Of a DNA stretch of 46,961 nucleotides, positions 2,398 through 46,961 are shown in pieces. Origin of the DNA: Jimgerdemannia flammicorona. Taxonomy: Eukaryota. A program made the translations under genes and the position numbers. Position 1 is the first letter of the stretch. Each line of letters opens with the position of its first letter. Location: contig RBNJ01000049.1 of assembly GCA_003990765.1 (NCBI GenBank), forward strand, positions 1-46,961, given 5' to 3'. The notes under the pieces were generated by a model. It saw only the letters and a program-made list of their open reading frames with translations, was not told the origin of the DNA and did not search any database.

Positions 2398-3278
2398 TTG
2401 GGACTGGGTGCAATCAAGTGTCTATTCCCTATTTCCTTCTTCCAAATTTGGCTGTACCATCACAATAGTTTGGAAAGATCATCATTATCATTATCTTCTG
2501 CTGATAACTCTTTAATAGTATATATGTAGATATACTACTCTGGTTTCCAGATTAGCTTTTTCATTTGAATAGTAGAGATAATATTGTACTTGGATTTTGC
2601 TTTCTTCTTAATCTGTTCTAGCTATAGCTTAATATATCTTAGGGAGATTGTATTGGGTTTTTAGTTAATAAGTAGATTTTTTTGAGTGAGCCAGGATTTT
2701 CTAAGAATGAGATTATGTTCTGAAAGATATACAATATAGAAGATCTGCTTTGTAGTGTAGTCTCTAGTTATAGAAGTACACTCTTGCAGATTTTTGAGAG
2801 TTTCTGAGTTGGTTTATTTCTAAATATAATAATGTTTCTTTCTGAGTTTCTTTATATCTTGAGTCTAAACTTATCAGCAGTCTCCTTATCAAGATAGCAC
2901 TTACTTGCTCCACTATCAATAAGAACTTTAACAGAGTTTCCTTCAATTTTCTCTTATAAGTGAATATATTCAGGATTACTGTCTTGTCAAGTAACAATTA
3001 TTTCTAAAGAGACTTCTTCTTCCCAATCTTGTACATCTTTATCTTCATCAATAATATTCTTGATTTCTTCATTTTATTATTCTGGAATAGTTGACTTATA
3101 CTTCTAGATATATAATATATTCTTCTATATATTTGAAATAGTACATCTTGACTCTGTGAGAATATCATTCTGTTAGAATATATATACTGTTATTATTTCT
3201 GATCTTAGTCTTCAATACAAACAATCTTCTATATCTTGATCTTCTTCTTAGTCTTGTTAGAGTACTTTTTTATTGATC

Positions 3279-3285
3279 TGAAAGC

Positions 3286-3361
<76 letters not shown>

Positions 3362-4109
3362 CTGTCCACCACAAAAATTATGTGTATTATGCTGCCATCA
3401 CTACACACACCCTATTGTCGCCCATTTACGCCATCCATGTTACATGAAATCCTCCTCATACTCTGCCACATTCTCCACCTCCTTGTCCCGCCAATTGCTC
3501 TTCATGTTAACCTTACTGAAGAAATCATCCACCTGCTTCTTCGCCTTCCACTTCTGCTCGGCCTGTCTCTCCTCCTCCGCCCGCTTGCTGAACTCCGCCT
3601 GCCGGCTCTGGAGTTGGTCCTTCTTGTCCCGCGCCAATTTTTCCACTGCCAAGTCGGGCTCGCGCTCCTCCTTGGTCTTGTTGAGGCGGTTCACAATCGC
3701 GTTGACGCATATCTTGACGTGGATGCGTTTGACCTTATCCAGTTTGTGGAACGACACCTGCCCCGTTTCTATCCCTGCCATCTTCTTGAGGTTGTCCCAC
3801 GGCATGTAAACAATCGCTATGTTGTTTTTCTTGTTGCCATCGATACTGTTCGACTTGACTAATTGCGCGCAATCCACGAGCAGCTCTTTGGGGATCTCGG
3901 CCCAATCCTGGCCCGGCTGGAGGCGGAGGTAGACGTGGGCGCTTGAGAGCTTATCAATGTGAAACCAAACGTCCTCGGGAAACCCATACTTGATAAGATC
4001 CTCATTTTCGAACTTGTCCTTGCCCATGTAGATAGTGGCGGGCAGGTTGACAACATTGCTGGTGAAATACAGGACCATGGTGTGTATGCTGCGTGAAAGC
4101 TTTTTCTCT
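3279..4109 (-). pseudogene. CCDC25: Processed retrocopy of a CCDC25-family mRNA with poly(A) tail and 16-bp TSD
   Basis: TGAAAGCTTTTTCTCT occurs at 3279-3294 and 4094-4109. Between them are a poly(T) run to 3361, a 78-nt 3' UTR, an intronless ORF and a 15-nt 5' UTR. It interrupts a gypsy dUTPase. Confidence 0.95.
3440..4078 (-). CDS. CCDC25: CCDC25/Jlp2-family protein (NFACT-R/DUF814 domain plus coiled coil), 212 aa, open frame within the retrocopy
   Basis: Family motifs [17 protein letters not shown], [18 protein letters not shown], DCAQLVKxNSIx[12 protein letters not shown] and the C-terminal EEDFM. Confidence 0.93.
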
Positions 4110-5133
4110 CTATCAGAGAGTGATAGTTTATTTATTTCTTTGACTTTAAGATTATTATATATTACCTTGATAATAGCTTAAACAATTCATTTTTCATATA
4201 TAATTTTGACTGCTTTCTGTCCAGTATTATATAGCAGGACCTTGATTTTGTCTTTGAATTCTTAGTCTATAACTCCTCTAGCTATACAGAGTCTCTCTTT
4301 CTTAATCAGACTGCTTCTTTCTATAAGACAGATATAGATTTCTTTAGAGACTTCCATTCCAATACCTATGCTAATAGTTACTTATTTATTTAGTTTAATA
4401 GTTACTTTTATACTAAAGTAGAGGTCATAGTTAGCATCAGATTTATATACTTCATTTAGAATTTTTGCAGCAATATAAAATCTCTTAACTTTGATTTTTT
4501 CAGAGATTTCTTTAAGATTATCTCTTATTATAGTAATAGTGTATGAGGAGAATGGTCTTTTGTTTATATTGGTCTTCTTATCAGGGTATTTACAAGACAT
4601 ATGTTCTCTCTTTTTATAGTAGAAATATGCTTCTTTCTTTATGAGTTTCTCTATTTTCTTATTGGACAATTTCTTTAAATTTTCTTACAATTTCAGAAGT
4701 TATTCCAAGATTTATATTTCTTTTTAAATTAATATCACTTATCTCCTTTGTTATTGTTTCTGTCATTTCTTAGTTTTTGGGCTACTAAGATAGTATATAC
4801 TCTAGTAATGGCTTATTCTAAGTATTATTACTTATATAAGTAATTATATAGTTATTTATACTCTTAGATCTTTTCTGATAACTATCTAAGAATTGTAGTA
4901 TCAAAGAAGTATACTGCTATGATTCTATTTACAGTTTGTTATATCAGCTATATTCTACTCTTATAGTATTCAGAAGAGTTTCTAATCTTATTACAAATAC
5001 TTTCTTTTCTATCATTATAGAATTAGAGGTTTTTGAGTTTAGTTCTAGCTTTGGAGATGTGAATAGAGCTATAGAACTATTGAATGATCAGTTTCTTTGA
5101 TTTATGGTAGCTGAGTAGACTTTATAGTTAGAG

Positions 5134-8100
5134 TTTTTTTTTTTTTTTTTTTTTTTTTTATAGTTACTCAGACTTCTATTTATTACCACTCAATCTATAA
5201 ATAATAATACATATGTACCCACAACCTCTCAGCCAATGCCCCTCAGATCTCTCTCCCTACTCTCCATCTCTCTCTGCTAAAGGACAACCCAACTACCCAC
5301 TATCTGAACCCTCCCTCCACTCTTCTTGCAAATATATTTTACCAAATTCTGATGGCCCCCTCCACCCAATCCCTACCCTCTCCACCAACTATTCAAAATG
5401 TCAAGATTAACCATTCCCAATGTGCTACCCTAGCTCCAACTGCAACCTGCTGACCCCCCTCAAAGATATGAAGCCAATGACTAGTCAGCTCTATCCAAAT
5501 TACCAGGGCCCATCCTAAGGTCAATCATTCATCTCCAATCCTATCCACCAACCTATGCTGGAGGTCCCCACATCTCCCTCCTTCCCCCTCTACCAGAGAC
5601 TGCAATCCCAAACTACTAGTAATACTATGCCAAAACTCCCCCAAAACTTCACACTCCTCTAGCCAATGATTGGTACCACTCCTCCCTCCTGGTTAATATC
5701 CATACAATCCTCAAACTCAAATGTACCATCTACCACCAAGTGCCCTGACCAATAGTTCAGCATCACATTCTGCCTTAGGAATCTCCACCATACCACTCAG
5801 AACTTGAAGGGAAGCCACTGCATTGTCCTCTTACTCTAAAGCCAAACACCAATCCAGTCCTACTCCTTGCCAATCCCCACCCTTTGCCATGCTACAGACC
5901 ACACATCCCCCTGAGTCCCTGCATACATTCCATTCCATCACCAAGCTAAAAATCCTCCACCAATGTATCTCCCAGCATTAGCCAGTCCCATCTCCACATC
6001 CATGATCCCCAGTCCTCCTCTCCCTCATCACCCCTCCACTGAAGTCCAATTCTCCTTGCACTATCTACTACTTCTCACCAAAAACCTTTGTAATGTATCC
6101 TCCTGCTCTCATTCATGGCCACCATTGCTAGCAGGTTACCAGTCACTCAATAAGAGAAGTACTGGACTTCCCACACCCTCTGCATAAGTGGCACCCACTC
6201 CCAGCCTCTTAACTCACTTGTCCTCTTCGGCCACCATACTCTCAGATAATATAGGTGCTTGGTAAAGTCTACTAAGCCCAGCTCACCTCTGTCAACAGGC
6301 AAAGTCAGAACCTCCCAGCCTATCTGACTTCACCACCTGGCCCAAATCTATGATCTTGCCATCTTCAGAAGTCACCTGACCACTCATGCTGAGAATTCCA
6401 GATAATACCCCACATACTACAGCTTTAGCAGCCAATATACATTCAGCACTATCACCCATCCTGCCAAGGAGATATGCTGACCACCCCATCTCACAAGAAC
6501 ATTCCCCCATACTAGTAGCTACTGTTCCTACAATATATGAGACAGAAGGGATCCATATACTGAAAAGTAGATCCCCAAGTACCAGATCAGTTCTCCTGCT
6601 GGAACCACTGTTTCAATCATATCACTGCTAATTATTCTGCTACCTAGCATCAAAGTCTCACATTTGTACAAGTTGAGCTTAGCACCTGAGCCCCTCTCAT
6701 ACCATTCCACAGTCCTCCTTAATTCCTCCACATCCTCTAATAAACTCAGTCCAACCACTATATTATCTACAAAAGTCCCCCCCACCTTCCAGTTAATTCC
6801 CAAAATATCCAAACCCCCAATTCAATGCCAGATCCTGTCCAATAGGGGCTCTAAGGAAAGGGTGTATAGGATGAGTGACAAAGGATCTCCTTGCAGCACC
6901 CCATGACCTAGCAGAAAAGTAACACCCCTGTGCCCATTCACTACCAATACTGCTTGACTGTTTTTCAATAGACTGATTAATGACCTCCTGAACTCTGGGG
7001 GAACTTTTACCCATTTCAGCACTTCCTCCAGCCAGACTCTCACCCTGTTATATATCTTCTCCTGATCCAGAAACATTAACCAGCCATTAATCCCAGCTGC
7101 TCAAGCCACTTCAATCACTCCATAGATCCAGAGAGTTCCATCTCAGATCAACTGACCACCAACAAATCCCCTCTGCTCTACTCCTAGTATCTGCTGAGCA
7201 ATCTCCTGCAGTCTAGTCACCAAAATCTTTGTCACCAGCTTGCAGTCCATGTCAAGGAGCATGATCAGCTACCAGTTCTTCCTATCTTCTCTTCTCCCCT
7301 TATCCTTATAGAGCAAGGAGACCAACCATAGACACTGGCCCCCAATCCAAGTTCCAGATTAATGAACCTCATCACTCATTACCATCATCTCCTCCAATAC
7401 CACCTCCACTCCAGCTATCTTCTTCCAAAAATCCCAGAGAAGCCCATCCTCTCCTGGAGCTATCCCCTTACTTGTTGAAGCCAGGATCTTGCATACTTCC
7501 TCTCCCTGCACTGGGTCTCCCAGTATCCCCAGGTCCAGAGCTGGGTCCAGATACCAATTTTCTAACTGCTGTTTGATGTTTAGGGCATCCTCACCCCCTT
7601 CTTTGTCACTCTATAAATTCCCACAGTGAGTCCTCAGTAATCCCAAAATCTTAGGAGTCCCTGCCACCATCTCTCCATCTTCATCCAAAATACTATCCCA
7701 CTGTTGCCTGGTTCACTGAGCTTAGAGCAACTATGAAAGAAATCTAGTGGGCCTCTCTCCCTCCTCCAACCCCTGCCACTGCAACCTTGCCACCATCCCC
7801 TTCAGCTGAACCTCTTCCTCTATTCATAACACTTCCTTTAGCTCATCTACTTCTTTTTGTATCTGCAGAAATCGCCAATCAGCTGCTCCCCAATCCTCCG
7901 GCGACTCTGCCCACCTCCTCAGAAGTGCTGTCAATCTCTGTAAAGTTCATAGCACTTGTTGCCTCTGCTGAACACTCCTTCCTTCCTCCCTCCCTCCAGT
8001 ACCTCTGAGCACTTGTTTTCAGTCACTGCCAGTGATCCCCAATCACTAATCCCTGTTTCTGCCACCTACCAATCTTCACAATAACTTCCACCTCCCAGTC

Positions 8101-10887
8101 TATCTATAAGGAACCATCCTCCAACAAAGAAGAATTCAATTGCCAATGTCTAAGCCCATCCTCACTTCCCCCAAATCTCCCACTTTCTATCAGACCCCAG
8201 TGATCTGACTATGGGCACCAAACCACCTCCAGCATGTTCCAGACATTCACTCTTCAGTACTCTACCATCAATACCCAGTCAATCCTGAAGCCCATCCCTG
8301 TCACCCAGTGAGTATAAATTCGGTGATTCTCCCAAAACTGTCACCCTGAGTCAACCAAGGAGCTCAACCTCTCAATCTCCATCCAATCATCCAACCTGCC
8401 ACTTCTGCCTTCCTTTCCTCTCCTTCTATCAGTTCTGTCTACTCCATTATCACATACTATATTGAAATCACCCCTCAGGCAATCAATCCCTACCTCACCC
8501 ATAATACCAGCCTCTCTCAAGCCTCTGATCCAATCTACACATTCCCCACTCTCAGCTGGGCAATAACATGACTCAACAGTCAAAGGGTTCCACCCAGGCC
8601 TCCTCTATACTCCCTACACCAACCTACTCTCCCAATGTCCAATATCCCCAATATCCCCCACCCCCTTTCAAACCAGAATGCCCACCTGCCCAGTTCACAC
8701 AGCTGCTCTGCTCCATTCTCTAGTTTAGTTCTGTAAATACCTATCTACCTTATACCATATATCCTGTAGTAAGAAGAGATCTGCATCCAGCCCCTTCAAC
8801 CAGCCAAAGATATTCCTTCACCACACTATGTCCCTCAACCCTGTCTCATTCAAAGAAAAGATTCTAGTTGTACTGTTTATATTGAATAATGTTTGATATT
8901 GAGAACCCATCATAGTACTCCATGCTCATCTCATCACCAGCCAGCTCTAAGTGCCACTCTGCCTCCAACTCCTTCTCCACTACAGCCTGAGAATCCAGTG
9001 CTTCCAAGATTTCCTAACACTCCACTGCATCCACCACCTCTATTTCTGCCTGATAATCTGTGCATATCAATCTCCACTTCTCCAACCTCTTCCTTGATCC
9101 CCACAAGTATGCTGCCTGATCACTCACAATCTCTCAAAGGGTCTCCTCCCTCTGATCATCAACCTGAAACTCCTCCAACTCCAAGAGCACTGTTAGGATC
9201 TCATTCCTAATCTTTTTTGACACCTCCTCACCATGGAGAATTTCCTCCTGGTGTCTATTACTTAGAACCTGAAAGTCCTCTCTCTCCAGCTCCTCAGCCA
9301 CCACACTCTCCAGAGTCTTCCACAGTCACTTCTCTTCATCTACTGCCTTAGCAACACTCTGGGTAACCCTTTCAGCCACCACCACAGAGTCCACCAAAGT
9401 GCTCCTCCTCTCCAACTCATCCCACTCCTCTTCCAACATATCCAGGAGTTCCTCCTCACCCTTTGCCCCACCCAGGACATCATACTAAGGGTGTACTCTC
9501 TCTCCCATTTCAGCATCCTCCTCTATACCACCCCATCCCTCCTGTGCTCAATCCACCTTGTGCCATACCCTGACCCAGCCTACTCTCTCCAGGCCAGGCA
9601 ATCTCTCTCAATCCAGTACCATCTTCATCTACCCCACTACCTACCACACTCCCTCCCAATTACTCCAATAGCTCCTTCTGGATTCGCCTCCCCTGCACCT
9701 TCTTCCAGGCCACCTTGTCCATCCTAATCCTCTTTCCATCCACAATCTCCACCACTGTCTTGGCTTCATACTCCTTCCAAGACAATCTTCTCCTCTCTAC
9801 TGCTTCTGCCAGATCCTTGAGAGCCTCCAGCAAGTCCTCTTCTTCCTCTGGTGTCCTTTCACCTGCAAGACCTTGCATTCAACCAGGCCCCACTTAAGAG
9901 TTGCCAGCCAGTTCCTTGTCTTCTCTGTATTCTCTCTTCCAGCCAGCCTCACCCTGACATCAATGTCTCCTGTCCAGAGTTTAGTACCCTCCCAGACTCT
10001 GAACCCAATGTCCACAATATCCCCATACTCCTTGACCACCTCCACAATCAGCTCTCTGGTCCTCTCCCTTGACACCATAGAAAGATCCAATACCATCAAC
10101 TGCACCACTCAGGGGTCCCAGTATATATATCTGGCCATAGGAACTACCACTCTGCCCACTATCACCCCCTTCTCCATGGCTTCCAACATCAATGCCTCTT
10201 CCTCAAATCCAACCTTGACTCCTTCTTTCCCCTTCAAGAACTTCACTGAAGCCACCCCCTTCACCTTCTATATCACCAGCCCCAGAATCATTCTCACTAT
10301 CACTGCCAAGCCTTGGAAGCACAATGTGATAGTGAATTCTGATCTTGACTTTGTAAGTAATGGTGCTGACACCATTCCAGTCATGCCATCTGCCAGGTCC
10401 CTGGGCCTCATGCCCTCCTCCTATTCTGATTTGCCCACAACTGTCACACCTGGATTTTTTTCCAGATTCTCAGTCACAGCTCTATCAGCAGTCACATCTC
10501 CAGCCCCTGCTCCCCCCCTCTCCCTACTGCCTGGACCTCCCGCCCCTCTCTGTCCCCCAACTGAAGCCATCAACACCTTCCCCAGTCCCAACCAACTATA
10601 CAGACCAGATGCTATTCTCTCCATCTTGACCTTATTACCTCCTCCCTCCTTGTTGCCTCAATCTGCCCTTCCATCTATCACCAATACCACAATCAGTCAT
10701 AGAAGGCTCTGGCATCCCCAAACCATCTCCCCACCTCCTCCCTATATGCTGCCAGTTGATGGCACTGCTGCCTCCCTGGCTGACATGCTCACCAGTATAT
10801 TCATTGCTGCCCATGTTGCTAGTCTCCTTTTTGCAAAAAGTGTTGTCTGAGTCTTGTGTCACCTGAATGTTACCAGTGAAAGGTATG
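5134..10887 (-). mobile_element. L1/Tx1-like LINE copy A, near full length, decayed
   Basis: Poly(T) at 5134-5159 with the same 3' end as copy D (AATAAATA...GTAACTAT-An). RT motifs FLDQEK, GVLQGDPLS, FVDN, SGAKLN; endonuclease GDFN; ORF1 LWTGDIDVRVRL; 5' end shared with copies B and C. Confidence 0.92.
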
Positions 10888-10889
10888 TG

Positions 10890-11300
10890 TTAGTGATTGA
10901 TTCCAGGCTGACTACTATATTATCTACAAAGGTACCAACTTTCCACCCAATGACATATACTGAAAGCCCTCCTATCTGGTGCTGAATCCTATCCATCAAA
11001 GGCTCCAAGGAGAGTACATACAGAATGGGGGACAGTGGGTCCCTCCAAGGGACACCCCTACCCAGAGGGAAGGCCACCCCTCTATACCCATTATATATAA
11101 TTGCAGCTCTGCTTTCTTCTAGTAGACTGACCATTACCACTCAAAACTGTTGAGAGATACCAATCCAATCCAGAACCTTGCCATTCAGACTCTCTGAACA
11201 AGGTCATCCACCTTCTCCTGATTCAAGAAGACCAGGCACCCATCTAGTCCACAGGCTCATGCCCCTTCAATAATATTATATACCCAAGCCATAATACCCA
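10890..11300 (-). mobile_element. LINE RT fragment (most similar to the D/E subfamily)
   Basis: FPLGRGVPWRDPLSPILYVLSLEPL...FVDNIVV; nucleotide sequence close to 40210-40600. Confidence 0.85.
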
Positions 11301-11304
11301 TCTA

Positions 11305-12535
11305 TCCTATATAAGTACAGTGAACCCACCCCCTACCCTATCCCCCTATGGGGGCCCCTCCCCCCTACCCCTTCTTGACGAAACACCACTCTATTGAATA
11401 CAATTCCCACCCTCCCACCACTCTGATCACATATCTTTGTCACCAAACCTCATTGTCACCCCCCTGAAGGACCCCAACCTATCCACCATCCAGTCATCAG
11501 ATCTCCCAGCAGCTCCTCCCACCTTAAGACCTTCTCCTGCATACTCACCCACTCCCCCTCCTCAAATACAAATAACCAATGTCCTGCCAATCCCACCCAA
11601 ATTGCTATCACCCACCCAACAGTGAGCCAACTATCCCCCACCCCCCCCACTAGCCAAGACCTCAAGTCCTCTCTGCTATCTGGTCCTCTCCTTTGACACC
11701 ATAGGGAGATCCAACACTGTCAACTGCACCACTCGGGGGTCCCAGCGCATGCACCTGGCCATAGGGATGACAACCCCACCAACTGTCACCCCCTTCTCCA
11801 AGGCCACCAGTAAAGTGTCTTCCTTCTCGAACCCCACCTCAACCCCTTCCTTCCCCTTCAAAAACTTCACCAATGCTGCTCCCTTTGCCTCCTGCACCAC
11901 CAGCCCCAAAATCATCCTTGCCATCACTGCCAAGCCCCAGAAACACATCATGACTGCGAATTCCGACCTCGACTTCTTGAGTAACAGGGCCGACACCATG
12001 CCCATAACCCCATCTGCCAGGTCCCCAGGCCTCGTGCCCACTCCCCATCCTGAATTATCAACTGCCATCACATCTGGATTTTTTGCCAGATCCTCAGTCA
12101 CAGCCCCATCACTAGTCACATCTCCAGCCCCTACTCTGGCTCCTCCCCCACCCTCAGCAACTCCCCTGGGTACACCTCCCAGACCCCCAGCAGCAGCTAT
12201 CGACACCTTCCCCAGGCCCAGCCAACCATCCAGACCTGAGGCCATCTTCCCCATTCTGACCTTGTTAGCAAAGGTCAACCTCTCTCCTCCTCTCTGCCTC
12301 AGACCACCCCTCCATCCACCACCAGGACCTCAGCTAACCATCGAGGCCCCCAGTATCCCCAAACCATCTCTCCTCCTTCCCACCTGCTGCCAGCCAAAGG
12401 TGCTGTCTCCCCCCTGGCCAGCACACTCACCAGTTCGATCGTTGCCATCCATGTCAATAGTCATTGGACACCAAAATGTAGTAAAAAGTATTGCCTGAGT
12501 CTTGTGTCACCCGAATGGTACTGGTGAAAGATGAT
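11305..12535 (-). mobile_element. LINE copy B, internally deleted (5' end and first third of ORF1 fused to the 3' terminus)
   Basis: 12535-11676 aligns with the 5' ends of copies A and C; 11675-11305 aligns with the ORF2 C-terminus (WVIAIWVGLAGHWLFVFEEG). Confidence 0.8.
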
Positions 12536-12539
12536 GCCA

Positions 12540-14950
12540 AGACCCTGGCCTCTTTCAACCCATGAATCCAATCCACCCACTCCCCTCTCACAGCTGGGCA
12601 GTAACATGACTCAACCATCAACAGGCTCTATCCAGACCTCTTCCACACTCCCTACACCAACCGAGACCCTCAAGGTCCAATGTCCCCAATGTCCCTCATT
12701 CCTTTTTGAATGAGGATACCTACTCTCCCCATCCATACCACAGCCCCCCCCCATTCCTTAGTTCAATCCTGTAAGTCCACATCTACCTCATAACAGACAT
12801 TCTGCAGCAAGAAGAGATCTGCATCCAGTTCCCTTAGCCATCTGAATATGTACTTCCTCCTAGCTACCCCCCATAACCCATTTATGTTCAAAGAGAATAT
12901 TCTAGTTATACTGTTTATTTTGAAGAAATGTTTGAATTCAAGATCCCAGCCTAGTATTCCATACTCATCTTATCCCAACTCAGATCCAAGCACTGCTCTG
13001 CTTCCAATTCACCCTCTGCAACAGTCTGAGCATCCAATGCCTCCAATATTTCCTGACATTCCACCCCATCCACCACCTTCATCTCTGTCTGGTAGTCCAT
13101 GCAGACTGCTCTCCACTTCTCCAAACCCTTTCTTGAGTTCCACAGATATGCTGCCCAGTCATTCGCAATCCCCCTAAGTTCCTCTCCCACAGATCATCAA
13201 CTTGGTATTCAACTGATTCCAAGAGAACTGCCAGGATCTCATTCCTTACCTTCCTCAGTACCCCCTCTCTCCCATAGGATTTCCACCCAATGCCTCTCTT
13301 CTATAACCTGGAAGTCCTCTCCCCACAGCTCCTCTGCAGCCACCCCTTCCAGCATCTTCCACAGCCACTTCTCCTCATCCACCACCTCTGCCATACTCTG
13401 GGTAATCTGATCACCCCCCACCTCTGGGTCCACCAGAGCACTCCTCCTCACTGACTCATCCCACTCCTCATCCAGCATGTCCAGCAACTCCTCCTCCCCC
13501 CCAGCTCCACCCAGGACACTGTACTGAGGGTGTACTCCTTCACTCATTTCTGCATCTGCCTCCACACTGCCTTCCCTCTCCTCTCCCAATCCAACCTGCA
13601 CCCCACCTTGGGCCATTTCGCTTCCCCCTGCCCAGGCACTCTCTTGCAATCCCACTTGCCCATCCCCCATATTGCTGCCTGCCCCACCACTGCCCAGCCT
13701 TGCCAGCAGCTCCTTCTGGATTTTCCTCCCCTGCATCTTCTCCCAGGACACCCAATCCATCCTGACCCTCTTCTCATCCATGACTTCCACCACTATCCTG
13801 GTCTCATACTCCTTCCAAGCCAATCTCCTCCTCTCAACCACTCCTTCCAGATCTTCCAGAGCCTCAAGCAAGTCTTCCTTCTCCTCTAGAGTCCCCTTCA
13901 CCCTCGTGACCTTGCACTCCACTGGTCCCCACTTTAGAGTCGCCAGCCAGTCCCTCAAATTCCCCATGTTCTCCTTTCCAGCCAGCCTCACCCTGACATC
14001 AATGTCACCAGTCCAGAGCTTGGTACCCTCCCAGACCTTGAACCTGACATCTACAATCTCCCTATACTCCTTGACTGCCTCCACAATCAACTCCCTAGCC
14101 CTCTCCTTTGACACCATAGAAAGATCCAACACTGTCACTGTATCACTCAGGGGTCCCAGTATATGCATCTGGCCATAGGGACCACAACTCTGCCCACTGT
14201 CACCCCCTTCTCCATGGCAGCCAGCAATGTCTCTTCTTCCTTGAACCCTACCTCAATTCCTTCTTTTCCCTTCAAAAACTTTACCAATGCCACTCCTTTC
14301 GCCTCCTGCATCACCAGCCCCAAGAGCATCCTCATAGTTATCACCAAGCCTCTGAAATACATTGTGACAGTAAATTCCAACCTCGATTTCTTGAGCAATG
14401 GTGCCAACACTATACCTGTCACCCTATCTGCTAGGTTCCTGGGTCTTATACCCACCCCTTATCCTGAATTAGCAGCTGCTGTCACATCTGGATTTTTATC
14501 CAGATCCCCAGTTACAGTCCCATCAACAGTCATATCTCCAGCCCCTACTCCTCCTCCTCCCCTACCACCAGATACTCTCCTGGGCACTCCTCCTAGTCCC
14601 CCAGCAGCAGCCATCGATGCTTTCCCCAGGCCCAGCCAACCATCAAGGCCAAAGGCCATTTTCCCCATCTTGACCTTGTCAGCAAAGGTCAACCTCTCCC
14701 CTCCTCACTGCCTCAGGCTGCCCCTCTCTCCTCCACCAGAGCCTCAGCCAGCCATTGATGCCCCTGGCATCTCCAAACCATCTCCCCTCCTCCCTACCTG
14801 CTGTCAGCCAAAGGCATCACCTCTCCTCTGGCCAGTACACCCACCAGTTCAATTGTTGCCATCTATATTGATAGTCATCTATCACCAAAAATATTGTAGA
14901 AAGTATTGTTGGAGTCTTGTGTCACCTGAATGTTACTGGTGAAAGGTGTG
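12540..14950 (-). mobile_element. LINE copy C, 5' part (ORF1 plus start of endonuclease), 3'-truncated
   Basis: 5' end CACACCTTTCACCAGTAACATTCAGGTGACAC at 14950; ORF1 segments at 14692-13239; endonuclease start IFSLNING...ADLFLLQ near 12900-12790. Confidence 0.88.
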
Positions 14951-15064
14951 ACATCTTTCTATCTTTAAGAATGATATTTTATTATATTTCATTTATTCAC
15001 TAGTTCTTCTTCTATATTTGTATTTTCCTACCATCAGAATTTATCTATATTTTTTATTTTCACT

Positions 15065-16692: not shown

Positions 16693-16738
<46 letters not shown>
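16693..16738. repeat. Poly(T) tract at the left border of the CpG-rich island
   Basis: 46 consecutive T. Confidence 0.9.
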
Positions 16739-16740
<2 letters not shown>

Positions 16741-18566
16741 ATGTTTCCGTAACCATTGGTTATGTGATAACTATTGTTCGCCCACCACAAAGTTACGGCT
16801 TCACATCCTGGGCATTGTCTTTCGGTGGTTCTACGGCTCGTCAAAAGATTCGTAGAATTTTCCAAAATCCGATATCCAACAACCGTGCCCCGATTTTTAT
16901 AATCTGCATACGACATAGGATATGTTAATTTATCGTCAAAAGTTCCCTCGATGTAATTCAGGAGAAATTATCGTGCATCCTTTCAGATACGCTCAAAATT
17001 TTATGTGAAGGTCTACTGATACAGTATTCTCGTTGCGCCGTGTCCGCGACAGTTTTGGCTGGACACAGTTTGACCCAGCCACGACAGGCTGCTCATTTGA
17101 TGGCAAGGTTTCAATGACGGGTTAGGCAAGTCATTAGACGGCAATGTGATTGGTGGGCCTTATTAACAACCTGCCGAATATATCAGCTAGCGACGCACAG
17201 TTGCGCCCCAGCGTCACGTTCGTTGGCCAGTTGGGTTGGTCAAATGACGAGGGGCCCGTCATTCATTCGCCCTAGAGCTTTTAGACGACCCCAAATAGGC
17301 GTACGTAACGCAATTGTTTTTTATTATTATTTTTTTATTGCTATCTTTACTACTACACTCCACTCACGTCTTCTACGCTTCTTCTACGCTTCTCCAACGC
17401 GCTCTCCAACGCGCTCTTCATACCACCGCCTCCCAATTACCCAACGACACTACTCCGCAAAACGGGCTTTTGGCCTGTGTTCGATCCTGATCTATCCGAA
17501 TTTACCGTGTACCGCCTGACTGGACAAGCTCACGCGCCTCTCTTTATGGACGTACAATGGCAGACCCATCCCACACTTCGACGGCTGAAAGCAGCGAACG
17601 AAGACACGTCCCACGCTACTTCGGCACCGTATCTGTCGCGCATGACGTTGGTCCAGCAGGGCAGCCACGGCGGTGGGGACCGGTTGTTCCTTTGCCACCA
17701 GTCCTTAGTTTCCAGAGTTCGTTGTCATGGGTGGTGCGTCACGAACGTGCGCTTAGCGGCCAGAGCCATTCGTGGCCTTTTGATTTTTACCTAGTATTTC
17801 TTTTCTGGTGACATGTCGAACACGCCACTCTCACACCCTCGACTACGCAACTCAAGCCAACAAAGTATCCGCCCATTGGTCACCGCCCAGTTTGTCGCGT
17901 GAAAGCCTTTGCTTCGTAAGGCGCTGCCATCTAACCCCCAAACCGCTTTCACCCCACCTGTAATGAGCATACCACGCCAAAATTCAAACGCCAATTGCCA
18001 ATTCGGTGGCACTCCAGTAACCTTCCTCGTTTGCTGCTCATGTGAGTTTAGCCTCTACTTTTCATCATCTCCCTTTTTGCTCCATGCGCCCTGGCGAGCA
18101 GCAGACTCGCGCACAATGTATACATGTCTAAGCAGACGATTCACATTCAACTCGCCGGACATTCAGTATCAGCAGAAGACGACATCACCATCGGTAGCTA
18201 AGGTACGTACTGGATAACGGTGTGAAGGTGTGGAGGTCCCGACTGGTATGCCGTAGACTGAAAACATCGGTGATGGAGGCAGGAATATATGTTTCCTTGG
18301 GAATTAAGCTGAAAACGTGGCATGATCGACAATTGAGCAGTGCCTTAATTGGCTGTAATATTAATTTCCGTACTTCATATCCATAAACAGCCGCCACATA
18401 AACAGGCGACGCTGATGGTTTCCGTGTATCTCGGGAAAAATTGGCGGCAAGTAAGGAGGCGGTGGGTTGTTTATGGCGTGGTATCTTTTACACGGGTGAA
18501 AAAAAAACAAAAAAAAAAAATACAAAAAAAAAAAAAACTAAAAAAAAAAAAAAAAAAAAAAAAACC

Positions 18567-18613
<47 letters not shown>

Positions 18614-20170
18614 AGAGGTTCGACGTAACGTTACTGTGTATACAGGTTTCATCTCTGGTAATCTAATTCGGTCCGTTGACAACATACTTTTAAATTATCT
18701 CCAGCGTTCAAGCTTTCCATTGGCGTTTGTTATTTTCGTCATGACGTAAATAAATGTGATAACGATCCTCGATTTTTCAAACGAATACGACAAAAAATGA
18801 GTGGTAAATCGAGGAGGTCTAACACTACTGAAAATTTTAGGTTTGATTATATTATAAAATTGTGGATATCGATCCTGACGTGTGATTATCATCTGTTTTA
18901 TTTTTATTTATTTTTTTATTTTTATTTTTTATTTTTATTTTTATCAATACAATAACAGACTCCTTCCGCTACCCACATCACGACGCCTCCCAAGTTGGCA
19001 CGTCTTCAAATGCTTACGTGTACCCAAGCAGGTAAGCGCAACCACAAGCTCAAACCGCAATCTTGAAGGGCTAGGAGAATATTGTTGAAGTGACGCGTTA
19101 GGTATATGAATGGGGGAAAGAATGTATTATTAAAAAAAATAAGGGCGGGTATCTTGGAGACGCGGGAGGGAAGACAATTCTATAGCGGCATCCAATAGGA
19201 GACGGAAAAAAAAAAAAAAAAAAAAAAAGGGCGATTTTATAACGGGTATTCAAAAGGAGACAGGAGAAGAAAAATCTGTGACGGTATATATTCATTTCTT
19301 TATATAACTTCGTCTCTTATAATTAAGCAAACGCTCCAAACGGACAAGCACAATTTTAAAGACACGACATAGGCTTGCACGACCGGGTCGGCATAAACTC
19401 TGACCGTGAAAGATCGGCAACCTCAGGTGCACGTAAAATCATGAAGATGAAATATACGAGCAGTTTCGGGAGGCCAGCAGTTCGAAATATTAAAATGCAT
19501 TATTCCACAAGACATGAATTTGAGACAATTATGTATCGTAAGAGCCTCCAAACCAATTTCCGAAACAATATGGTACATGCAATGCATCTTATTGGCAAAC
19601 CTAGTGTGTGTGTTGAAAAGGAGGACGAAAGACAAATGGGTGATAACAAAAGGCAACCGTACAATAGTGTTCTACAAGCGGAGCATAACTCGACCGACGC
19701 CACAATAGCTAAGCGCAAGTCTGAGGGACCGGAAGCAGGGTGGCGAACCTGCACATGTTTTCATTGCAAATTATTGTTCTTCCAGAGCATTCTAAATTCG
19801 CGCATTCCAGGTGCATTTTAGACCCACTACGTTCTGAATACGTGCATTCTGAGAGCAAATTTATCCTGCTGCGGTTTACTTCTACACATTCTAGGAGTAC
19901 GCTATCCTGTTCTATTTGTTGCCATCCCTCCTGCCCGTCGCGCTCGTCACCGTCATGGCTTGGTCAAGTTATGCCGTCACGGTCCAAGTTTGAATCCGAT
20001 GTATAACAAAATCGTGAGCATTGCGATATTGAGAAACGTACTACAATCGGGCATTCCGCATCTCGAGGATGCAAAGGAAAGTTTAGGGTCGGCATCGTGG
20101 AAAATGCACCATGACAGAAAATTGCAATCAAAAACGCAAACTCTTTGACTTTGTGAAGCTCTCACCATGC
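16739..20170. other. CpG-retaining non-repetitive island; possible spliced + strand transcription unit, product unrecognised
   Basis: CG dinucleotides are frequent here and rare in the flanks. Donor-like GTGCGT 17734, GTGAGT 18042, GTACGT 18203, GTAAGC 19032; acceptor-like AG at 17794, 18135, 18958; ACAATGG start context at 17557. Confidence 0.4.
18499..18611. repeat. Long interrupted poly(A) tract
   Basis: About 113 nt of A with a few C/T interruptions; no TSD found. Confidence 0.85.
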
Positions 20171-20249
20171 CTTTTTATAATAAAATAAGAGTAAACAGAT
20201 CAAGTTTATTTTGGCAAAAGAGAAGTTATATATAAATTTATTTATTCAT

Positions 20250-20955
20250 CAGCTTTGTAATAAAACTATACACTGATAGAATTAATATGTTGCAGAGAGT
20301 CAAAGGTGACTTTCAGCCCTAAGTTCTGAGTTCTTAAGGAAGTACTGAGTTCCAATTACCTATTGCAACAGAGTCCATGTATCACTTTCAGGTTCTTATA
20401 CTAGTGGAAGTACCATGCTTATATCCCAAGTTAATCAGGCTTGGAATTGTTAACAAGTCAGATCTGAGGGTTTTATTGCTTTATTCTTATGTTTGGAGAA
20501 AGCAGAGCTGAGGTTACAACACACTCAGTATAGAGAGAATTTATATATATTTGAAGACTATAACTAAATATAGTATACTGGATACATTCATATATATATA
20601 GTTATACTTCTTTAGGTAACTATGGCTGCTAGTTAGAAATTCTGTAGAAATTTCTAGTGACTTTTGTAGATATATGTAATAATTCATTATATTCTTCCTT
20701 TCTTTACTTGAACCTACTTGTTAGGCTCAGTATAAGTGCACAACCTCTAAGCTACTGAAATTGTATATCATCTTTAGAATAAATCTGGAAATCACATATA
20801 AGATCACAAAGCTGAGTTAAACCAAAGTTACAGATCATGAAGCTGAGTCAACTTGAAGTCATAGAATATAAAATATATAGAAATAGAATCTTACTAATCA
20901 GGACTGAAAGTATATATACTAAATATATAGTATAATGAAGAACTACAACAAACTG
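20250..20955. other. Old CpG-depleted repeat-like DNA that hosts LINE D; continues at 26833-27723; family not identified
   Basis: Same decayed composition on both sides of the LINE D TSD; no diagnostic motif recognised. Confidence 0.3.
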
Positions 20956-21038
20956 CAGCCTTTCTCAGCTACCATTCATGTTATACATACTTTTACAACA
21001 CACTTTCAAGTTGTTTATTAGAGAAAGGTACTAAGGCA

Positions 21039-23080
21039 ATGACAAACAGCAAGCAATCTGGAGTGCATACTGGGCAGGGTGGCCCTAGCACGTTCAACTG
21101 GCAGTAGGTGGGGAGAGGTCCTGGCCTGGGGGGAGGCATGAGGGGGCTGTTGGCAGGAGAACAAGAAGGGAGAGGAGGCAGTAGTAGAGGACAGGGGTCT
21201 GGGAGGGCAAGCTTTGCAGAGATGGTGAAGGAGAGGCAGCAGACATCTGGGTTGAAGGGTTGGCTGAGAAAAGGCAAGGAGATGGAGAAGACAGCAGTTC
21301 ACAGAGGAGTAGTCCTTGGTGGTGAGGGCAGTGAAGCTGGGGGAGTAGTGGCTAGGGAGAGTATGATGGCTAATGGTGATGGGACTGCCAATCTGGAAAA
21401 AAATCCAGATATGACTGCTGATGGCATGGCTGAGCAGCTGAGGCTTGGAAGGCAAGGAGATTTGGCAGATAGTGTGATGGGTCTGGCAGTGGCTCCATTA
21501 CTCAAGAAATCGATCTTGGCATTTGTAGTGACGTTGTGCTTCTAGGGCCTGGCAGTGATGGCAAAAATGGTGCTGGGGCTTATTGCTAAGCAGGTGGCTG
21601 GAGCAGTATCTGTAAAGTTCCTGAAGGGTTTGGAGGGAGTGGAGGTGGGCTTTGAGGAGGCTGAGCCTCTGGAGGAAGCACTGAAAGTTGGATTGATAGT
21701 TGGGGAGGTGTGTGTTCTAATGGCATGCTGCCTGAAATAGGACTCCAAGGTGGTCCAACTGCTGGTGAAAGGAGTGCCTATGGTAATGGCAGTAGAGATG
21801 AGAAGGAGAGTTGAGGAGGTCATAGTGGAGTATAGAGAGGTGGTGAATATGTATCAGATTCAGAGTCTGGGAAGGGATCTTGCTCAGAACTGGAGATGTG
21901 GATGTGAGGATTCAGCTGGCAGGAAAAGAAGCTATCAGAAAGGCAAGGGACTGGCCTTCAGAGATAGTCTGGGGGGTGATCTTGTACAAGGTGACAAGGG
22001 TGAAGAGGAGTGAGGAGGAGGAAGAGGACTTGCTGGAGGCACTGGAAGAGCTGAGTGGAGCAGTAGAGTAGCAGGTGAAGGCTTGGAAGGTTTTTGTGGA
22101 GTCAACATACTTGGAGGTGGTGGATGGAAAGTGGATTCGAGTAGACAAGGGGTAATGGGAAAAAGCTCAGAGATATAAGCATCAGAAAGAGCTACTGGCT
22201 AAGATAGAAAGTCAACCATAGAAGGAGATAGGTAGAATGATAGAAACAGGGGGTGCCAAGGCAAGTATCTGGGCTGGCAAAGATGGTGGGAGTACAGAGA
22301 AGAGAACAGAAGAGGACAGGAAAGCAGCTAGCAATGACTCATATGCTGATGGTATATTGGAGGTCTGAGAAGAGGACTGGGAGGGATCGCCTACCTCTAC
22401 TTCTCTTATCAGGCAAGGTCCAGCTTCCCAGAGCAGGATGAGAGAGAATATACTAATAAAGGGGGCCCAGTGAGTGCAATTTGGAGTTCCTGAGGTAGCA
22501 AATGGGGGACAGGTGGTGGCAGTTAAAGAGGAGGAACTGGTGGATATCCCAGAGGTGTGGGATGAGGCTGCAAGTACTGGGGCTGACACTACAATGTTGG
22601 ATGGCAGGAGACTAGTGACTCCTGGGGGAAAAGAGGTAGGAAACCTACTTTGGATATGCAGAATGATGAATAACCTAGCAGCTGAAGAGTTGGGGGAGGT
22701 GGACTTGAGAGTAATGAGCAATGAGCATTGGGCATAGATCTTGCAGGGGAATGGAGTGGAGTTGGCATTGAAGGCAGAGATTCTTGCAGTGTATCTAGAG
22801 GAGGAAGAGTATGAGGTGGATAAGGAGCAGAAGACAGAGCTAGCAGGGGTTGCTGGTGAGAGGGCCAAATACTGTTGGGCCAAGCAATATAGATTGTAGC
22901 TCTGGTAGGAGGTCTGCCTGAAGTACTGAGAGAAGTTTGAGGAGAAGACAGATGGAGAGATAAATGAGCTATTGACTGGATTGGAGGCTCAGAGGGCTGA
23001 AGAGGAAGCAGTGACTGTGGAACATAATCTGGACATAGCACAAGAAGAGATAAACATAGAGCAGTAGGAATGGACTGAAT
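21039..23080 (+). pseudogene. LINE D ORF1 (nucleic-acid-binding protein), multiple stops and frameshift
   Basis: ATG at 21039; RTGDVDVRIQL motif and acidic tracts homologous to ORF1 of copies A, B, C and E. Confidence 0.75.
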
Positions 23081-26000
23081 AAATACACTATACTTTATAA
23101 TAAATAGTACAACTAATATTTTTTCTTTGAATATGAATAGGTTACAGGATGCTTATCAATGAAGGAACATTTTTACTTAGCTGAAGGGATTGGAGGCCAA
23201 TCTCTTCCTCTTGTAGGATGTCAGGTATGAAGATGATTTAGATAGACTGGAATGGACAAAGAAATGGAGAGATGAGGCAGTTTGGAAGGGAAAGGTTGGG
23301 ATTCTGGTACAGAAAGGTAGAGGGGAGATAAGAGATATGCAGAGCTGGGGGGATAGATTGGTCTGGGGTGAGTGGATATGTACAGGATGAGAGCTGGTCA
23401 CAGTGGGCTCCTGTTACTGCCCTGCTGTACAGAGTGAGCATGTGGATTGGGTGAAGGGCCTTCAGGAGAGTGAAATCCTTGTAGAGGCAGGGGTGGATAT
23501 GCTTGGTGGAGACTACAATATGGTCTGAGATATACTGTTAGATAGAACAGATGGAGGATGGGGAGCTGAGGGTCAGAGTGGAGGACTGGCAGTATAGGAG
23601 GAAGTGAAAAGGCTGAGTGCTCTGGTGGATGTGGGTAGAGAGTGCTGGGGGAATAGGAGGGTATACATGCATTGAGTAGGGGGCTTGGAGATGAGAATTG
23701 ATTGGATTCTGACAGCTAGCTGCTGGGGCTTAGATGTTTGGAAGTTACTGGAGGTGGAATGGTGTCCTTGATTGGATTATTAGAGGCTTTTAGAACAGGA
23801 GCATTTTGGGGGGAGTAGGGATGGGCCTGGACATTGGTACTTCAATTCTTCCTTATTAGATGATAAGATCTGGTGGGATGAGTGGGCTGCAGACATTCAA
23901 CTGAGGGTAGAGTGTTAGAGACAGGAAGGTGCTCCAGTTGGTGTTTGGTGGATATGGATAAAAGAGATGGCCAGGACCTACTGAAGTGAGGCTGGCAAGG
24001 AGGCTGGGAAACAGAGGAGGTGATGGGTGAGATGAGCTTCTAGTAGACTGTCTAGACTCTTGGAGAATTGAGCAAGACTGGCAATATTGGAGGGAGAGGA
24101 GAATTGGAGATCAATGAGGGTAAAAAGGGAGGTTGGTGAACTACAACAGGTATTGCAGGAGGAGGAAGAGGCAAAGGTGCAGAGCTTGGCAGTGTGGCTC
24201 TGTTGGCAGGGTTTGGAAGAAGGGGAGAGACCCTCAAAGTATCTCACAAGAGCCCTTCAGGCAAGAAGGGTACAGCAAAGGTGGAAGGGGGTGCTTGACT
24301 CTGATGGTATACTGGTGCATGATATACAAGACATTCTTAGATCTTTAAAGGAGCATTGGAGTAGATTGTGGAGTAAGGAGGAGGGTGGGGCAGATGTGGA
24401 TACTATTGACCAAGTATTAGAGAATTGGCACCCCTCACGAGTAGATGGGTTGGGAGACTTGGTGTTGCCAGTACAGGAAGAGGAGATCCACCAGGTTCTT
24501 GCTGTGACAATGCTGGATATGGTACTTGAGAAGGACAGTTTACCCTGGGACTTTTGGAAGAAGATGGTGGGAATCTCAGGAGTACTGAGTGAGATGATAG
24601 TATTGTGTGATTTGATTCTATAGATGGAGAGATGGGTGGGGGAACAGGATCTGGGATTGGTGACATTGCTTTACAAGAACAAAGGAAGGCAAGAGGACTA
24701 GAAGAACTGGAGGCCAATTATGCTACTGAATATGGACAGAAAGTTGGTTACTAAGATGGTAGTCACAAGGCTACAAAAGGTGACCCAGCAAGTCTTGGGT
24801 ATTGAGCAGAGGGGCTTTGTAGGAGGCCAGCTCATTAGAGATGGTACAGCCTGGATACATAGAGTTATTGAAGAGGCACAAGCTAGTGGATTGAATGGAT
24901 GTCTGGTCTTTTTGGACAAGGAGAAGGCTTATGACCAGGTGAGGCAAGGCTGGCTGGCAAAAGTATTAGATAGGACTGGGGTTCCATACCAGTTCAGGTC
25001 AGCAATGGTCAGCCTACTGGAAGGGAGTAGGGCTGTACTCATATGTAATAAACATAGAGGGGTAGAATTTCCCCTGGGTAGGGGGGTGCCCCAGGGGGAC
25101 CCACTGTCCCCCATTCTGTATACTCTTTCTCTGGAACCCTTAATGGATAGAATCAGGTGGAAGATAGTGGGGCTCTCCATCTTTGGCATTGGGTAGAAAG
25201 TAAGGGCCTTTGCAGATAATATAGTGGTTGGACTGGGATCCATTACTGATGTGGAGGAGCTTAAGGAGATAGTAGAGTGGTATGAGGAGAACTCTGGGGC
25301 TAAACTTAATTGGCATAAGTGTGAAACAATGGTGTTAGGCAATGGTCTGATGGGAGGGGAGGTTATTGGAACAATTGTCCCTACTGATGAGACAGTGCAG
25401 TACTTGGGTATCTATCTGTCAGTATACAGGTCAGTTCTATCCAAGCTTTGGTGGAAGCAGTGGGTTAGAATCTGAGGAGAGGCCCTGCAGAGTTGGGAGG
25501 GTTGCCAATTGTCTCTGGCAGGGCATGTCTCGATTTTGAATATCTACTAGCTGCCAAAGTTATAGTATCTGGCTTATTATCTAGACTTCCCAGCCTGGGT
25601 GGTGAAGAGATTGATGAGGCTGGCCAAGGGATGGATCTGGGCTAGAAGAAGGAGTCAGATCAGCTGGGAGGTCTTGTCCTTACCAGTGGTGAGTAGTGGA
25701 CTTGGGCTGGTTGACTTTCCAAAGAGGCTACACTGCTTGAGAGCATGGTGGCTGAAGAGAGCCATGAAGTTGAGAGGGGGAGGTTGGGTTCTCCTATTAC
25801 AGAAGGTCTGGGAGATGAGGTCCTTGCCAAGAGGCTTGACTGGAGATCTCCTATCTTTGGTTGGCCTTCAGAATACTGAAAAATTGCAATATAAAGGCTT
25901 CTGGTGGGGGGTAGCAGAGAGGATGCACTGTATTGGAATTCATTGGCAAGAAAATGAAGAGGAGGTGGCTTGGGACCTGGTGATGTAGAGATGGGACTGG

Positions 26001-26780
26001 GTGTTGCTGGGCAGCATTCCCTTACTCAAGTTTAACATTAGTGATGAGATTGAATGCCAAAGGAGACCAGGCCAGGATCTGTGGCCCAGTGGTTGGTAGG
26101 GAGTAGGAATTGGCAAAAAGTGAGACTAGTATGGCATTTGGGCCTGGAGTGCTGAGGTGAGAAGATGGATGCTACTAAAGTACTGAGTGACTTGGTGGCA
26201 CATGCTGAGGAGAAATGTAATGCTCAACTATTGCTCAGATCACCTTATCAAGGGGGGTTGCTTCGACTGTGAGGAGTGCCATAATGTAGAGCAGGAAGGG
26301 AGATATGTACAGACACCTGAATATTGGCTAGAAGAGTGTGAGGTACTTAGTGACTTTTGGCAGACTGTTGGGAATCATTTGGGGGTAGGGTGCAGGGGAG
26401 TTGGCATACAGGGGCAGTGAGAGGATTTGAGAGATAGACTGGTGGGGGTGGTGGGAAAGGAATGATTCACATTAGGCTGGGCTCTGGTCATTTGGGTGGG
26501 GTTGGCCAGCCACTGGCTATTTGTTTTTGAGGATGGAAGGAGACTGGGCTTGGGGGTCCAGCTGCTGCAGTAGCATAGCCTTATGGAAGACATCTTGACA
26601 GGCTGGTGGATTGGTTGGGGGTTACAGGGTGGTCAGAGGTGTCAATTGGTAGAGAAAATCTGTAGGCAGAGTGGGGGAAAGGTTGGAGTAGTGGGTGAGA
26701 AGGTGGTCTTTGTTCAGGAGAGAGTGGAGAGAGGCTCCCCTACAGGGATCAGATAGTGGGAGGAAATACTATAAACTTAT
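23070..26780 (+). pseudogene. LINE D ORF2 (APE endonuclease - RT - Cys-rich C-terminus), multiple stops
   Basis: NIFSLN, GGDYN, RIDWIL, WYFNSSLL; KNWRPIMLLN, FLDKEKAYD, GVPQGDPLSP, FADN at 25209-25220 (decayed FADD), SGAKLNWHKC, YLGI, GLGL, CFDC. Confidence 0.9.
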
Positions 26781-27723
26781 TAATAGACTAGTAATAAATA
26801 GTGGAGTCCAAGTAACTATAAAAAAAAAAAAAAACTACAACAAACTGAAACCATAACCATAACTCTCAAATATATATTTAGACATGACCACTGAAATCTA
26901 TAATTACATTTATGCTGACATTTGGAATACCATTGTTAACTGAGCCATAATACTCCTATCTCTTATGAATATTTATGACTTAGCACTCCTTTACTTTATA
27001 GAAACCTGATGGAATATCCTAAACATACTTAGTGAGGTCTACCAAATTTGACAAATTTCAAACTACTATCAGATCAGCTGTCTCCTGGAAGATATAGTTA
27101 ACCACTACTATAATATAGATATTACTAAAATATCTCTATATCAGAAACTCATTTCTTATAAATACTGAGAACTCTTTTATAAGTATAGAATCTTTATTCT
27201 TTATCTCTGAGTTACTACTACTAAAATAGTTATTACTCTGACTTATAGTCAAATTAATAATATGGTATAAGAACTTAATCGCAAATATATCAAGTATATT
27301 CAAATTACTGATAGACTCTTTCTATATCCAGATGACTATATTCTACAAATACCTTAAGTTGAATATATTATGAAGAATATCTACAATATAATTCAATTTG
27401 ACAATAATGAAGTAGAAGATAACAATCTCTCTAATATTGATATAATCTTTAGCCAAGAATCTCTACCAACTCTGATCACTCTACTAACTTTACCAATGAA
27501 CTTACAATAGTTTATAACTATATAAAATCTATTGAAATAATGACCACTGATATGAGTATCAATCTACATTTATATCTAACTACTTCAACTATAATGAAGA
27601 AACCAGAGAATATAACCTATATATCCTGATAGTCTCTTATTAATATAAATATCCTCTCCTTTAGATCTTAGAAACTGAGATATGAATAGACAAAAATACT
27701 ATTAAGAATACTTCTCTACACAA

Positions 27724-34939: not shown

Positions 34940-36324
34940 TGTAATGGTGACCTCAGAATAATAACATTAGTACAGGAGACAGCCTTTCCTTACAAGTCAC
35001 CAGATTAGAGCACAAGAAGATCATATGGCATGACTCATCTAGACTACAAGATGAGTAATGATGACCAACTGTGAGTCATTGTGACCACAAGACAGACATC
35101 TTGAGAAATATAAAAAAAGGATCAAGAAACCACAGTAGTGGCAATCCAAATAAAGCTCACAGAAATAGTTCTAAAGACTTACTATAAACAAAATGTCTGC
35201 TGCTTGTCAAACCTCAAGGTCCAGGAACCACTAAGACCCCTCAGTCTAGGATAGTATGTTCCAAGACATCAAGAGAGCTATGGGGATCTATACAAGAAGG
35301 ACTCCTAGCCTCAATCTGGGTACTGATAACCCTTATCATTATATCCTCTACTACTATGAAATGGAAACAAGGATCACTATTGCTACTGAATACCTCTAGA
35401 TATGGCAGGAGTATGAAATAGGAAATCTCCTCTACCAGGAGTTCCCTCAGGCCAGTTCTCAGGAGATTCAAAATACCACCTCCATGGATATATATGAAAT
35501 AAAAACAGCAAAGAAGATGCATCAGATCTTCTGGCATACACCATAATTGATCCCCAACTTAGAGTACACTAGGATCTCAGACTTTAAGAAACTGTTAGCT
35601 CACCACACCAATACACTGGAGGCCATGGTGGCCACAGAGGCTCAGTCTACTATCACCCTTAATAATGATAAAGTAGAGGACTTCTGGTATCCCATCCTCC
35701 AGGACAACCCAGATCAATTCATGTGAGGATTGATCTCAGCATTCCAAGGCCCCAGTATCTAGGTTAGACTTTCCCAAGACCCCACATTTGTTCCTTATTT
35801 TGTAGAAGAGAATGTCATAGATTAGAGAGCCCCTGCTACTACTGAATAAGATGACATCACTCATGATGATGTCATTAGTGATGACATCATTCTACACAAC
35901 ATATGTAAAACATGCAAAATATGTGACATATGTGAAACAGATGAAACATTTGTGGACCTCATCTCCTTCAAAGACATCCTGTCTCCAACCTCTGGCCTTA
36001 ATAATAGTGATAAAGATGAAGCCCCCATAGTCCTGAATATTCTGCTTTAAGTTCTTAGTAATACTGAATTCTACCAACATCCTTTTTCTGTATAACTGTA
36101 ATTCTTCTGGTATTCTAATCTTGTGTAACTCAGAATTCTTCTGGTATCTTTTTTCTGTATTACCAAAATTCTACTGGTATCCTAAACTTATACAACTATT
36201 TGTATAGATACTTAAACTTATACTTACAACTGTAGTTTTCTGTATTTCAGTATTTTATTTGATTATTGGAATTTATATTTAGCTTTATAACTTAGCAACT
36301 ATTGAATTATATTTTATATAAATA
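34940..36324 (+). repeat. 3' LTR, truncated by the LINE E insertion
   Basis: Aligns with 27724-29075; homology stops after TATTTTATATAAATA. Confidence 0.9.
35193..36050 (+). pseudogene. Decayed ORF (~286 codons) of unknown function inside the LTR; second copy at ~27977-28810
   Basis: Single frame from AAACAAAATG (ATG 35193) to TAA 36050; most internal stops are TGG/CAG/CAA in the other LTR copy. Confidence 0.6.
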
Positions 36325-42105: not shown

Positions 42106-42140
<35 letters not shown>

Positions 42141-46944: not shown

Positions 46945-46961
46945 TTTTTTTTTTTTTTTTT
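46945..46961 (-). repeat. Poly(T) at the window edge, probably the tail of another retroinsertion into the gypsy pol
   Basis: The T-run abuts gypsy coding sequence; truncated by the window. Confidence 0.5.

Follow-up and report, generated by a model that had tools for sequence, protein, structure and literature searches.

A CCDC25 insertion with the structure of a processed pseudogene in decayed retroelement DNA of a Mucoromycotina-like fungus

Processed pseudogenes are textbook components of mammalian genomes, and the nick made there by L1 has the consensus TTTT/AA. We have analyzed an insertion of CCDC25 sequence in a window of 46,961 nucleotides (the whole stretch of DNA under study), and it shows the structural features of a processed pseudogene of the mammalian type. 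Like the L1 processed pseudogenes, it is a promoterless, apparently intronless cDNA with untranslated regions, a 3' poly(A) tail and a target-site duplication of the 15-20-bp class, and it shares with them the pattern of neutral decay and CpG hypermutability. It differs from them in its host, which is Mucoromycotina-like, and in its putative nick, which reads ...CTCT/CT.

Gene retroposition in fungi is described as little studied in the available text of a 2017 review (PMC5470649). In Magnaporthe grisea, according to the relevant sections of the original report, the machinery of a LINE (MGL) copies cellular RNAs and leaves direct repeats of 10-20 bp; the retropseudogenes described in those sections are chimeras of the non-coding RNA WEIRD with MGL or Mg-SINE, formed via template switching (PMC2104539). 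Compared with these chimeras, as they are presented there, the window copy is simple: a protein-coding mRNA with a complete CDS and its own poly(A) tail. Processed pseudogenes mediated by Ty1 are reported from yeast (excerpts of PMC7175516 and PMC5470649), and they resemble the window copy in that a cellular mRNA was reverse-transcribed by retroelement enzymes in a fungal host. As outlined in these excerpts, however, they arise through template switching or recombination by an LTR element, without target priming and without a long duplication beside the poly(A). Zorro3 of Candida albicans, an L1-superfamily LINE with a 3' poly(A), is described in a passage of PMC7175516 as integrating into poly(A) tracts, whereas the two window insertions that could be scored lie in targets of mixed sequence. 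Our literature search found no mRNA retrocopies in Mucoromycota, which is no proof of their absence.

Anatomy of the CCDC25 insertion and its surroundings

An earlier note, made from the sequence alone, had described a 15-nt 5' UTR, a 212-aa ORF, a 78-nt 3' UTR, a tail of about 68 A and a perfect 16-bp target-site duplication. The feature is real, and each of these elements was confirmed at the position given for it. The parts of the insertion and the adjoining host DNA are as follows.

3279..3294, no strand: target-site duplication TGAAAGCTTTTTCTCT, poly(A)-side copy (16/16 identical to 4094-4109)
3295..3361, minus strand: poly(A) tail, 67 uninterrupted A (Tandem Repeats Finder row 3286-3361)
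3362..3439, minus strand: 78-nt 3' UTR from the retroposed transcript (X1 and X3, RNA-library contigs)
3440..4078, minus strand: CCDC25 / NFACT-R_1 ORF, 212 aa plus stop, uninterrupted (translation, Pfam, contig comparison)
4079..4093, minus strand: 15-nt leader, a remnant of the 5' UTR, abutting the duplication (sequence reading)
4094..4109, no strand: second copy of the target-site duplication, adjoining the cDNA 5' end (16/16 identical to 3279-3294)
4199..4513, minus strand: host DNA of the insertion, a decayed, CpG-free gypsy-like coding remnant (tblastn; CpG o/e 0.00)

The insert proper is read from the minus strand and measures 799 bp (3295-4093). The two copies of TGAAAGCTTTTTCTCT bracket the cDNA and its tail exactly and form the longest direct repeat within 3200-4200, where the sole other family is of 14 nt at 93%; by hand arithmetic, the chance that the 16-mers on either side of a poly(A)-tailed cDNA match exactly is about 4^-16 per alignment. 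The poly(A) tail directly follows the 3' UTR of the mRNA and abuts one copy of the duplication, and its length becomes 68 A when the T at 3294, common to the duplication, is counted. The ORF begins with an ATG at 4078 and ends with a stop at 3440-3442. No upstream gene sequence is included in the cDNA insert, and the cDNA ends without fused LTR or gypsy sequence.

The window protein matches the Pfam profile NFACT-R_1 (PF05670) with an E value of 9e-33 over profile positions 1-111 of 112, and it has the organization of the CCDC25 / NFACT-R_1 family, in which an RNA-binding domain is followed by a coiled-coil tail of ~100 aa. CCDC25 is a conserved gene of the housekeeping type, and the protein collection holds 4503 homologues, the best named of which are 212-aa proteins of Mucorales with 66% identity. 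A maximum-likelihood tree was built from 62 CCDC25 proteins; it includes no rows of Glomeromycota or Endogonales, none of which occur among the best 120 matches. In this tree Mucorales plus Umbelopsis form the sister group of the window protein with support of 100/99, and the window protein falls outside the chytrids, Mortierellomycota, Kickxellomycotina, Dikarya and vertebrates. This placement agrees with the fungus-like host proposed in the earlier note. The note had also anticipated that automated annotation would take the copy for the gene, and an automatic gene call of 194 aa, P0001, does sit on the retrocopy.

The composition of the insert sets it apart from its surroundings: its GC content is 0.52 and its CpG o/e 0.83, against 0.26-0.29 and 0.00 in the flanks, so that the description of a GC- and CpG-rich body within AT-rich gypsy debris holds. 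Transposable-element DNA throughout the window has a CpG o/e of 0.00-0.06. By tblastn the right flank matches the translated gypsy copy at 42150-46961 (E 1e-8, 33% identity). Mixed retroelements make up the remainder of the window, namely gypsy elements with dUTPase and at least 4 LINE-like pieces. The dUTPase domains of the gypsy-type LTR elements lie at 31412-31891 (plus strand) and 45864-46169 (minus strand), with Pfam E values of 4e-19 and 5e-17, and adjoin RT and integrase remnants. Rfam and tRNA scans of the window gave 0 matches.

CpG-normal DNA in the window is limited to the block 1-2400, an island at 16739-20940 and the retrocopy. The block 1-2400 is GC-rich (0.58-0.70) and purine-rich, has long overlapping ORFs on both strands with 0 Pfam matches, and includes an inverted repeat of 343 bp (1555-1897 versus 2393-2051, 95% identical). 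The island holds a compound A-rich tract at 18509-18611 and an A23 run at 19206-19228. At 16693-18750, a poly(A) tract of 46 nt (T46 on the plus strand) ends a minus-strand piece of ~2 kb that has a CpG o/e of 1.1 and shows no coding signal and no Pfam or Rfam match. A possible 10-bp duplication, ATCACATTTA, occurs at 16681 and 18751, with ~0.3 such pairs expected by chance according to our estimate. This piece could be a second retroposed host RNA.

Decay of the copy relative to RNA-library contigs

Five public runs matched the insertion with a small word share (0.04-0.19), two of them from a coded organism and three from root metatranscriptomes. Four of the five were compared, giving five contigs; two of these runs are recorded as RNA libraries and two were taken for RNA by guess. 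The samples behind the contigs differ from that of the window and may represent other strains. All five contigs are confined to the cDNA part of the locus (3398-4082) and stop short of the flanks; they align without gaps, joints or loose ends, and their 5' reach ends at 4082, inside the 15-nt leader. The longest contig, from run X1 (669 nt, 3414-4082), takes in the entire CDS and is colinear with the window copy without gaps, and contigs X1 and X3 cross the 3' UTR (3398/3414-3439) without a listed difference.

X1 differs from the window copy at 18 of 669 sites. The other contigs repeat these differences wherever they overlap, except at three sites in X3, which has private differences at 3510 and 3916 and the window letter at 3511. 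Site 3511 is the single one of reversed direction; at the other 17 of the 18 the contig has G or C and the window A or T (binomial p 1.4e-4 against symmetry). The differences are concentrated at CpG, where 13 of the 18 are found, while CpG makes up 102 of the 669 positions (p 1e-7); outside CpG there are 5 differences in 567 sites. Of the 51 CpGs in X1, 13 are missing from the window copy, which has no CpG that X1 lacks. The trinucleotide contexts of the differences are mixed (ACG, GCG, CCG, TCG).

A test of selective constraint indicated its loss. Nonsynonymous and synonymous differences stand at 14:4, against neutral expectations of 187:163 for all such transitions and 60:38 for those at CpG, and five of the replacements fall on near-invariant residues. 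The RNA-type residue is found in 110 of 115 homologues at P12, 112 of 113 at V41, 119 of 119 at both T92 and M103, and 115 of 119 at R124, while the residues of the window protein at these positions occur in none of the 113-119 homologues compared. Only 1 of 98 possible CpG transitions creates a stop codon, so that a frame that has stayed open does not speak for selection. Since the differences are directional, centred on CpG and damaging to the protein, the window copy appears to be decaying while an intact version persists elsewhere. Judged from this comparison, it is a derived, probably unconstrained pseudogene rather than a working gene, and an intact, apparently expressed version of CCDC25 is represented in the RNA libraries. 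A working parent gene elsewhere in the genome is the simplest account of these results.

Several searches were made for such a parent. An exact pattern of 30 nt, taken from a stretch free of differences, had 0 matches in metagenome contigs. A protein-based scan of metagenome contigs yielded 85 relatives, of which 80 were kept; the parent was absent from these, the best having 53-63% identity, and the scan also gave a segment of 76% identity over 93 residues. In the protein collection, no entry of near length exceeded 66% identity besides P0001, the window's own call, and no entry of short length, as expected for exon-sized pieces of a parent, exceeded 77%. The metagenome homologues are usually split: 7 of the 8 examined fall into frame-shifted pieces, and in 4 cases the break lies at codon 38/39, a point that the window ORF crosses without interruption. 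Because of this splitting, a parent gene with introns is plausible.

Since the surrounding repeats are all free of CpG, the decay most likely stems from deamination of cytosines that would have been methylated in silenced DNA. A RIP-like process may also lie behind the loss of CpG. It may be that, in this early-diverging fungus, a still-active L1-like LINE placed a host cDNA in silenced gypsy DNA, where it was drawn into a CpG-directed genome defence, through spreading of methylation or a RIP-like mechanism, to which the repeats around it had already lost every CpG.

Probable source of the enzymes and alternative explanations

The neighbouring LINE for which a 15-bp duplication had been claimed was recovered with that duplication on both sides.

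20941..26847, plus strand: dead LINE copy with a 15-bp duplication; body 20956-26819, A tail 26820-26832 (tblastn, repeat comparison)

The duplication, AACTACAACAAACTG, occupies 20941-20955 and 26833-26847, and the element (20956-26832) terminates in 13-15 A. Every LINE copy of the window is dead, with no intact ORF, and the copies are 65-81% alike. Pfam searches with their own broken ORFs matched RVT_1 only, with no endonuclease match, while the proteins related to the RT fragment in the database combine Exo_endo_phos, RVT_1 and zf-RVT. By tblastn, residues 6-716 of P0125, a protein of 1202 aa with endonuclease, RT and zf-RVT, align with the first LINE copy, residues 7-255 and 340-936 with the second and residues 339-1082 with the third. 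By homology, therefore, these are LINEs of the APE type (L1 superfamily), with an APE endonuclease, RT and zf-RVT in addition to the A tail and duplication; the label 'L1/Tx1-like' refers to this domain architecture alone. In the ESM Atlas the RT fragment fell among RVT_1 clusters only, which carry no clade information. The A-tailed copy at 20956-26832 sits between the AACTACAACAAACTG repeats, and so a LINE of the APE type, with a poly(A) tail and 15-bp duplications, was at one time active in this genome.

Further LINE sequence lies on either side of this copy. A T26 tract at 5134-5159 is the poly(A) end of a minus-strand LINE block at 5160-15000, which comprises at least 2 nested or tandem pieces with RVT_1 remnants at 6825-7100 and 10862-11140; a duplication of 10 bp or more was sought for this block and not found. 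The 17-bp repeat GATATACAGGTCTTACA, which flanks an A30 tract (42109-42138), was rejected as a safe target-site duplication because the motif recurs in a tandem array with a period of ~19 bp, situated at the 3' terminus of a LINE copy within 42040-42160; the pair may be a tandem unit instead. The LINE copies at 5160-15000 (minus), 20956-26819 (plus) and 36300-42108 (plus) have far more G than C on the sense strand, with a GC skew of ~0.45. On that strand CpG is almost absent and the excess of CpA is greater than the excess of TpG, an asymmetry that points to deamination biased toward one strand or to an intrinsic skew of the element.

The insertion is very probably a processed pseudogene, made when a spliced, polyadenylated CCDC25 mRNA was copied in trans by an APE-type L1-like LINE, and decaying since. 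The earlier proposal of L1-type retroposition of a host mRNA is upheld by the poly(A) that abuts the duplication, by the perfect 16-bp repeat, by the lack of upstream gene sequence and by the gapless colinearity with the RNA contigs. From these hallmarks we infer target-primed reverse transcription in trans, for which a LINE, now represented in the window by dead copies, would have supplied the enzymes. The LINE endonuclease and RT would have captured the fungus's own spliced CCDC25 mRNA and nicked the plus strand of the window after ...TTTTTCTCT; the T-rich 3' end at the nick would then have primed on the poly(A) tail, so that reverse transcription placed the cDNA within a decayed gypsy element, and a second, staggered nick 16 bp off would have produced the duplication. 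The targets on the nicked strand are ...TTTTTCTCT/CTATC for the retrocopy and ...TTGTAGTT/CTTCA for the LINE, both cut after T and before CT; with n=2 insertions, this common motif is no more than a hint. The promoterless copy would thereby have landed inside repeat DNA lacking every CpG and, since insertion, would have undergone C-to-T and G-to-A changes, for the most part at CpG, without constraint at the protein level; its frame would still be open only because such changes rarely make stops in this copy.

Other accounts of the locus were weighed against retroposition followed by decay. If the copy were a relocated functional retrogene and the only CCDC25 of the species, the RNA-type contigs would represent this locus as it stands in other strains. 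That neither a second locus nor a parent-type protein was found in the collections searched speaks for this account, as do the intact ORF and its acceptance by the gene caller. It is nevertheless improbable: at those of the 17 G/C-to-A/T sites that it covers none of the five contigs has the window-type letter, five near-invariant positions bear residues seen in no homologue, the 14:4 split and the CpG-directed bias fit decay and not constraint, and the copy brought no promoter into surroundings of CpG-free repeat DNA. Less probable still is that the 18 differences arose by normal divergence of working orthologues between strains or species, or by RNA editing. The runs do come from other samples, and differences of the A>G type between DNA and RNA superficially resemble A-to-I editing, but divergence of orthologues should be about symmetric and mostly synonymous, instead of 17:1 in direction, with 13 of the 18 differences on CpG dinucleotides and 14 altering the protein. 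Editing was rejected because the sense strand shows both RNA C with DNA T and RNA G with DNA A, and A-to-I conversion cannot give both.

The abundance of gypsy copies in the window, and the position of the retrocopy inside gypsy-derived DNA, would suit an origin by Ty1-like template switching in a virus-like particle with a neighbouring gypsy element as the source. Integrase-mediated insertions, however, make duplications of 4-6 bp and carry LTRs. Here a tail of 67 A abuts a duplication of 16 bp, no LTR or gypsy sequence is joined to the cDNA, and both a 15-bp duplication and an A tail are seen on a LINE of this window; we give the LTR origin as little credence as divergence or editing. The least probable of these accounts is an assembly artefact, in which cDNA or a chimeric read contaminated the contig. 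None of the five contigs bridges the junctions, as an artefact would allow, but a contaminating cDNA would lack both the exact 16-bp duplication of the local target and the CpG-directed decay relative to the expressed sequence.

Meaning for annotation and for a possible genome defence in the lineage

The locus provides a case of an APE-type LINE in a fungal lineage that, as the probable source of the enzymes, acted in trans on a host mRNA. It also carries a warning for annotation, in that retrocopies can be mistaken for the real gene: here a dead copy was accepted as a gene (P0001). What is new is that contigs from RNA libraries expose the decay of the copy at CpG sites relative to an intact version. 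The inserted host sequence appears to be subject to the same CpG-directed decay that stripped the neighbouring repeats, and the retrocopy could serve as a dated marker of that decay. If the genome-defence reading is true, retroposition of mRNA would be ongoing in this lineage, and retrocopies could be used to calibrate the rate and reach of the defence.
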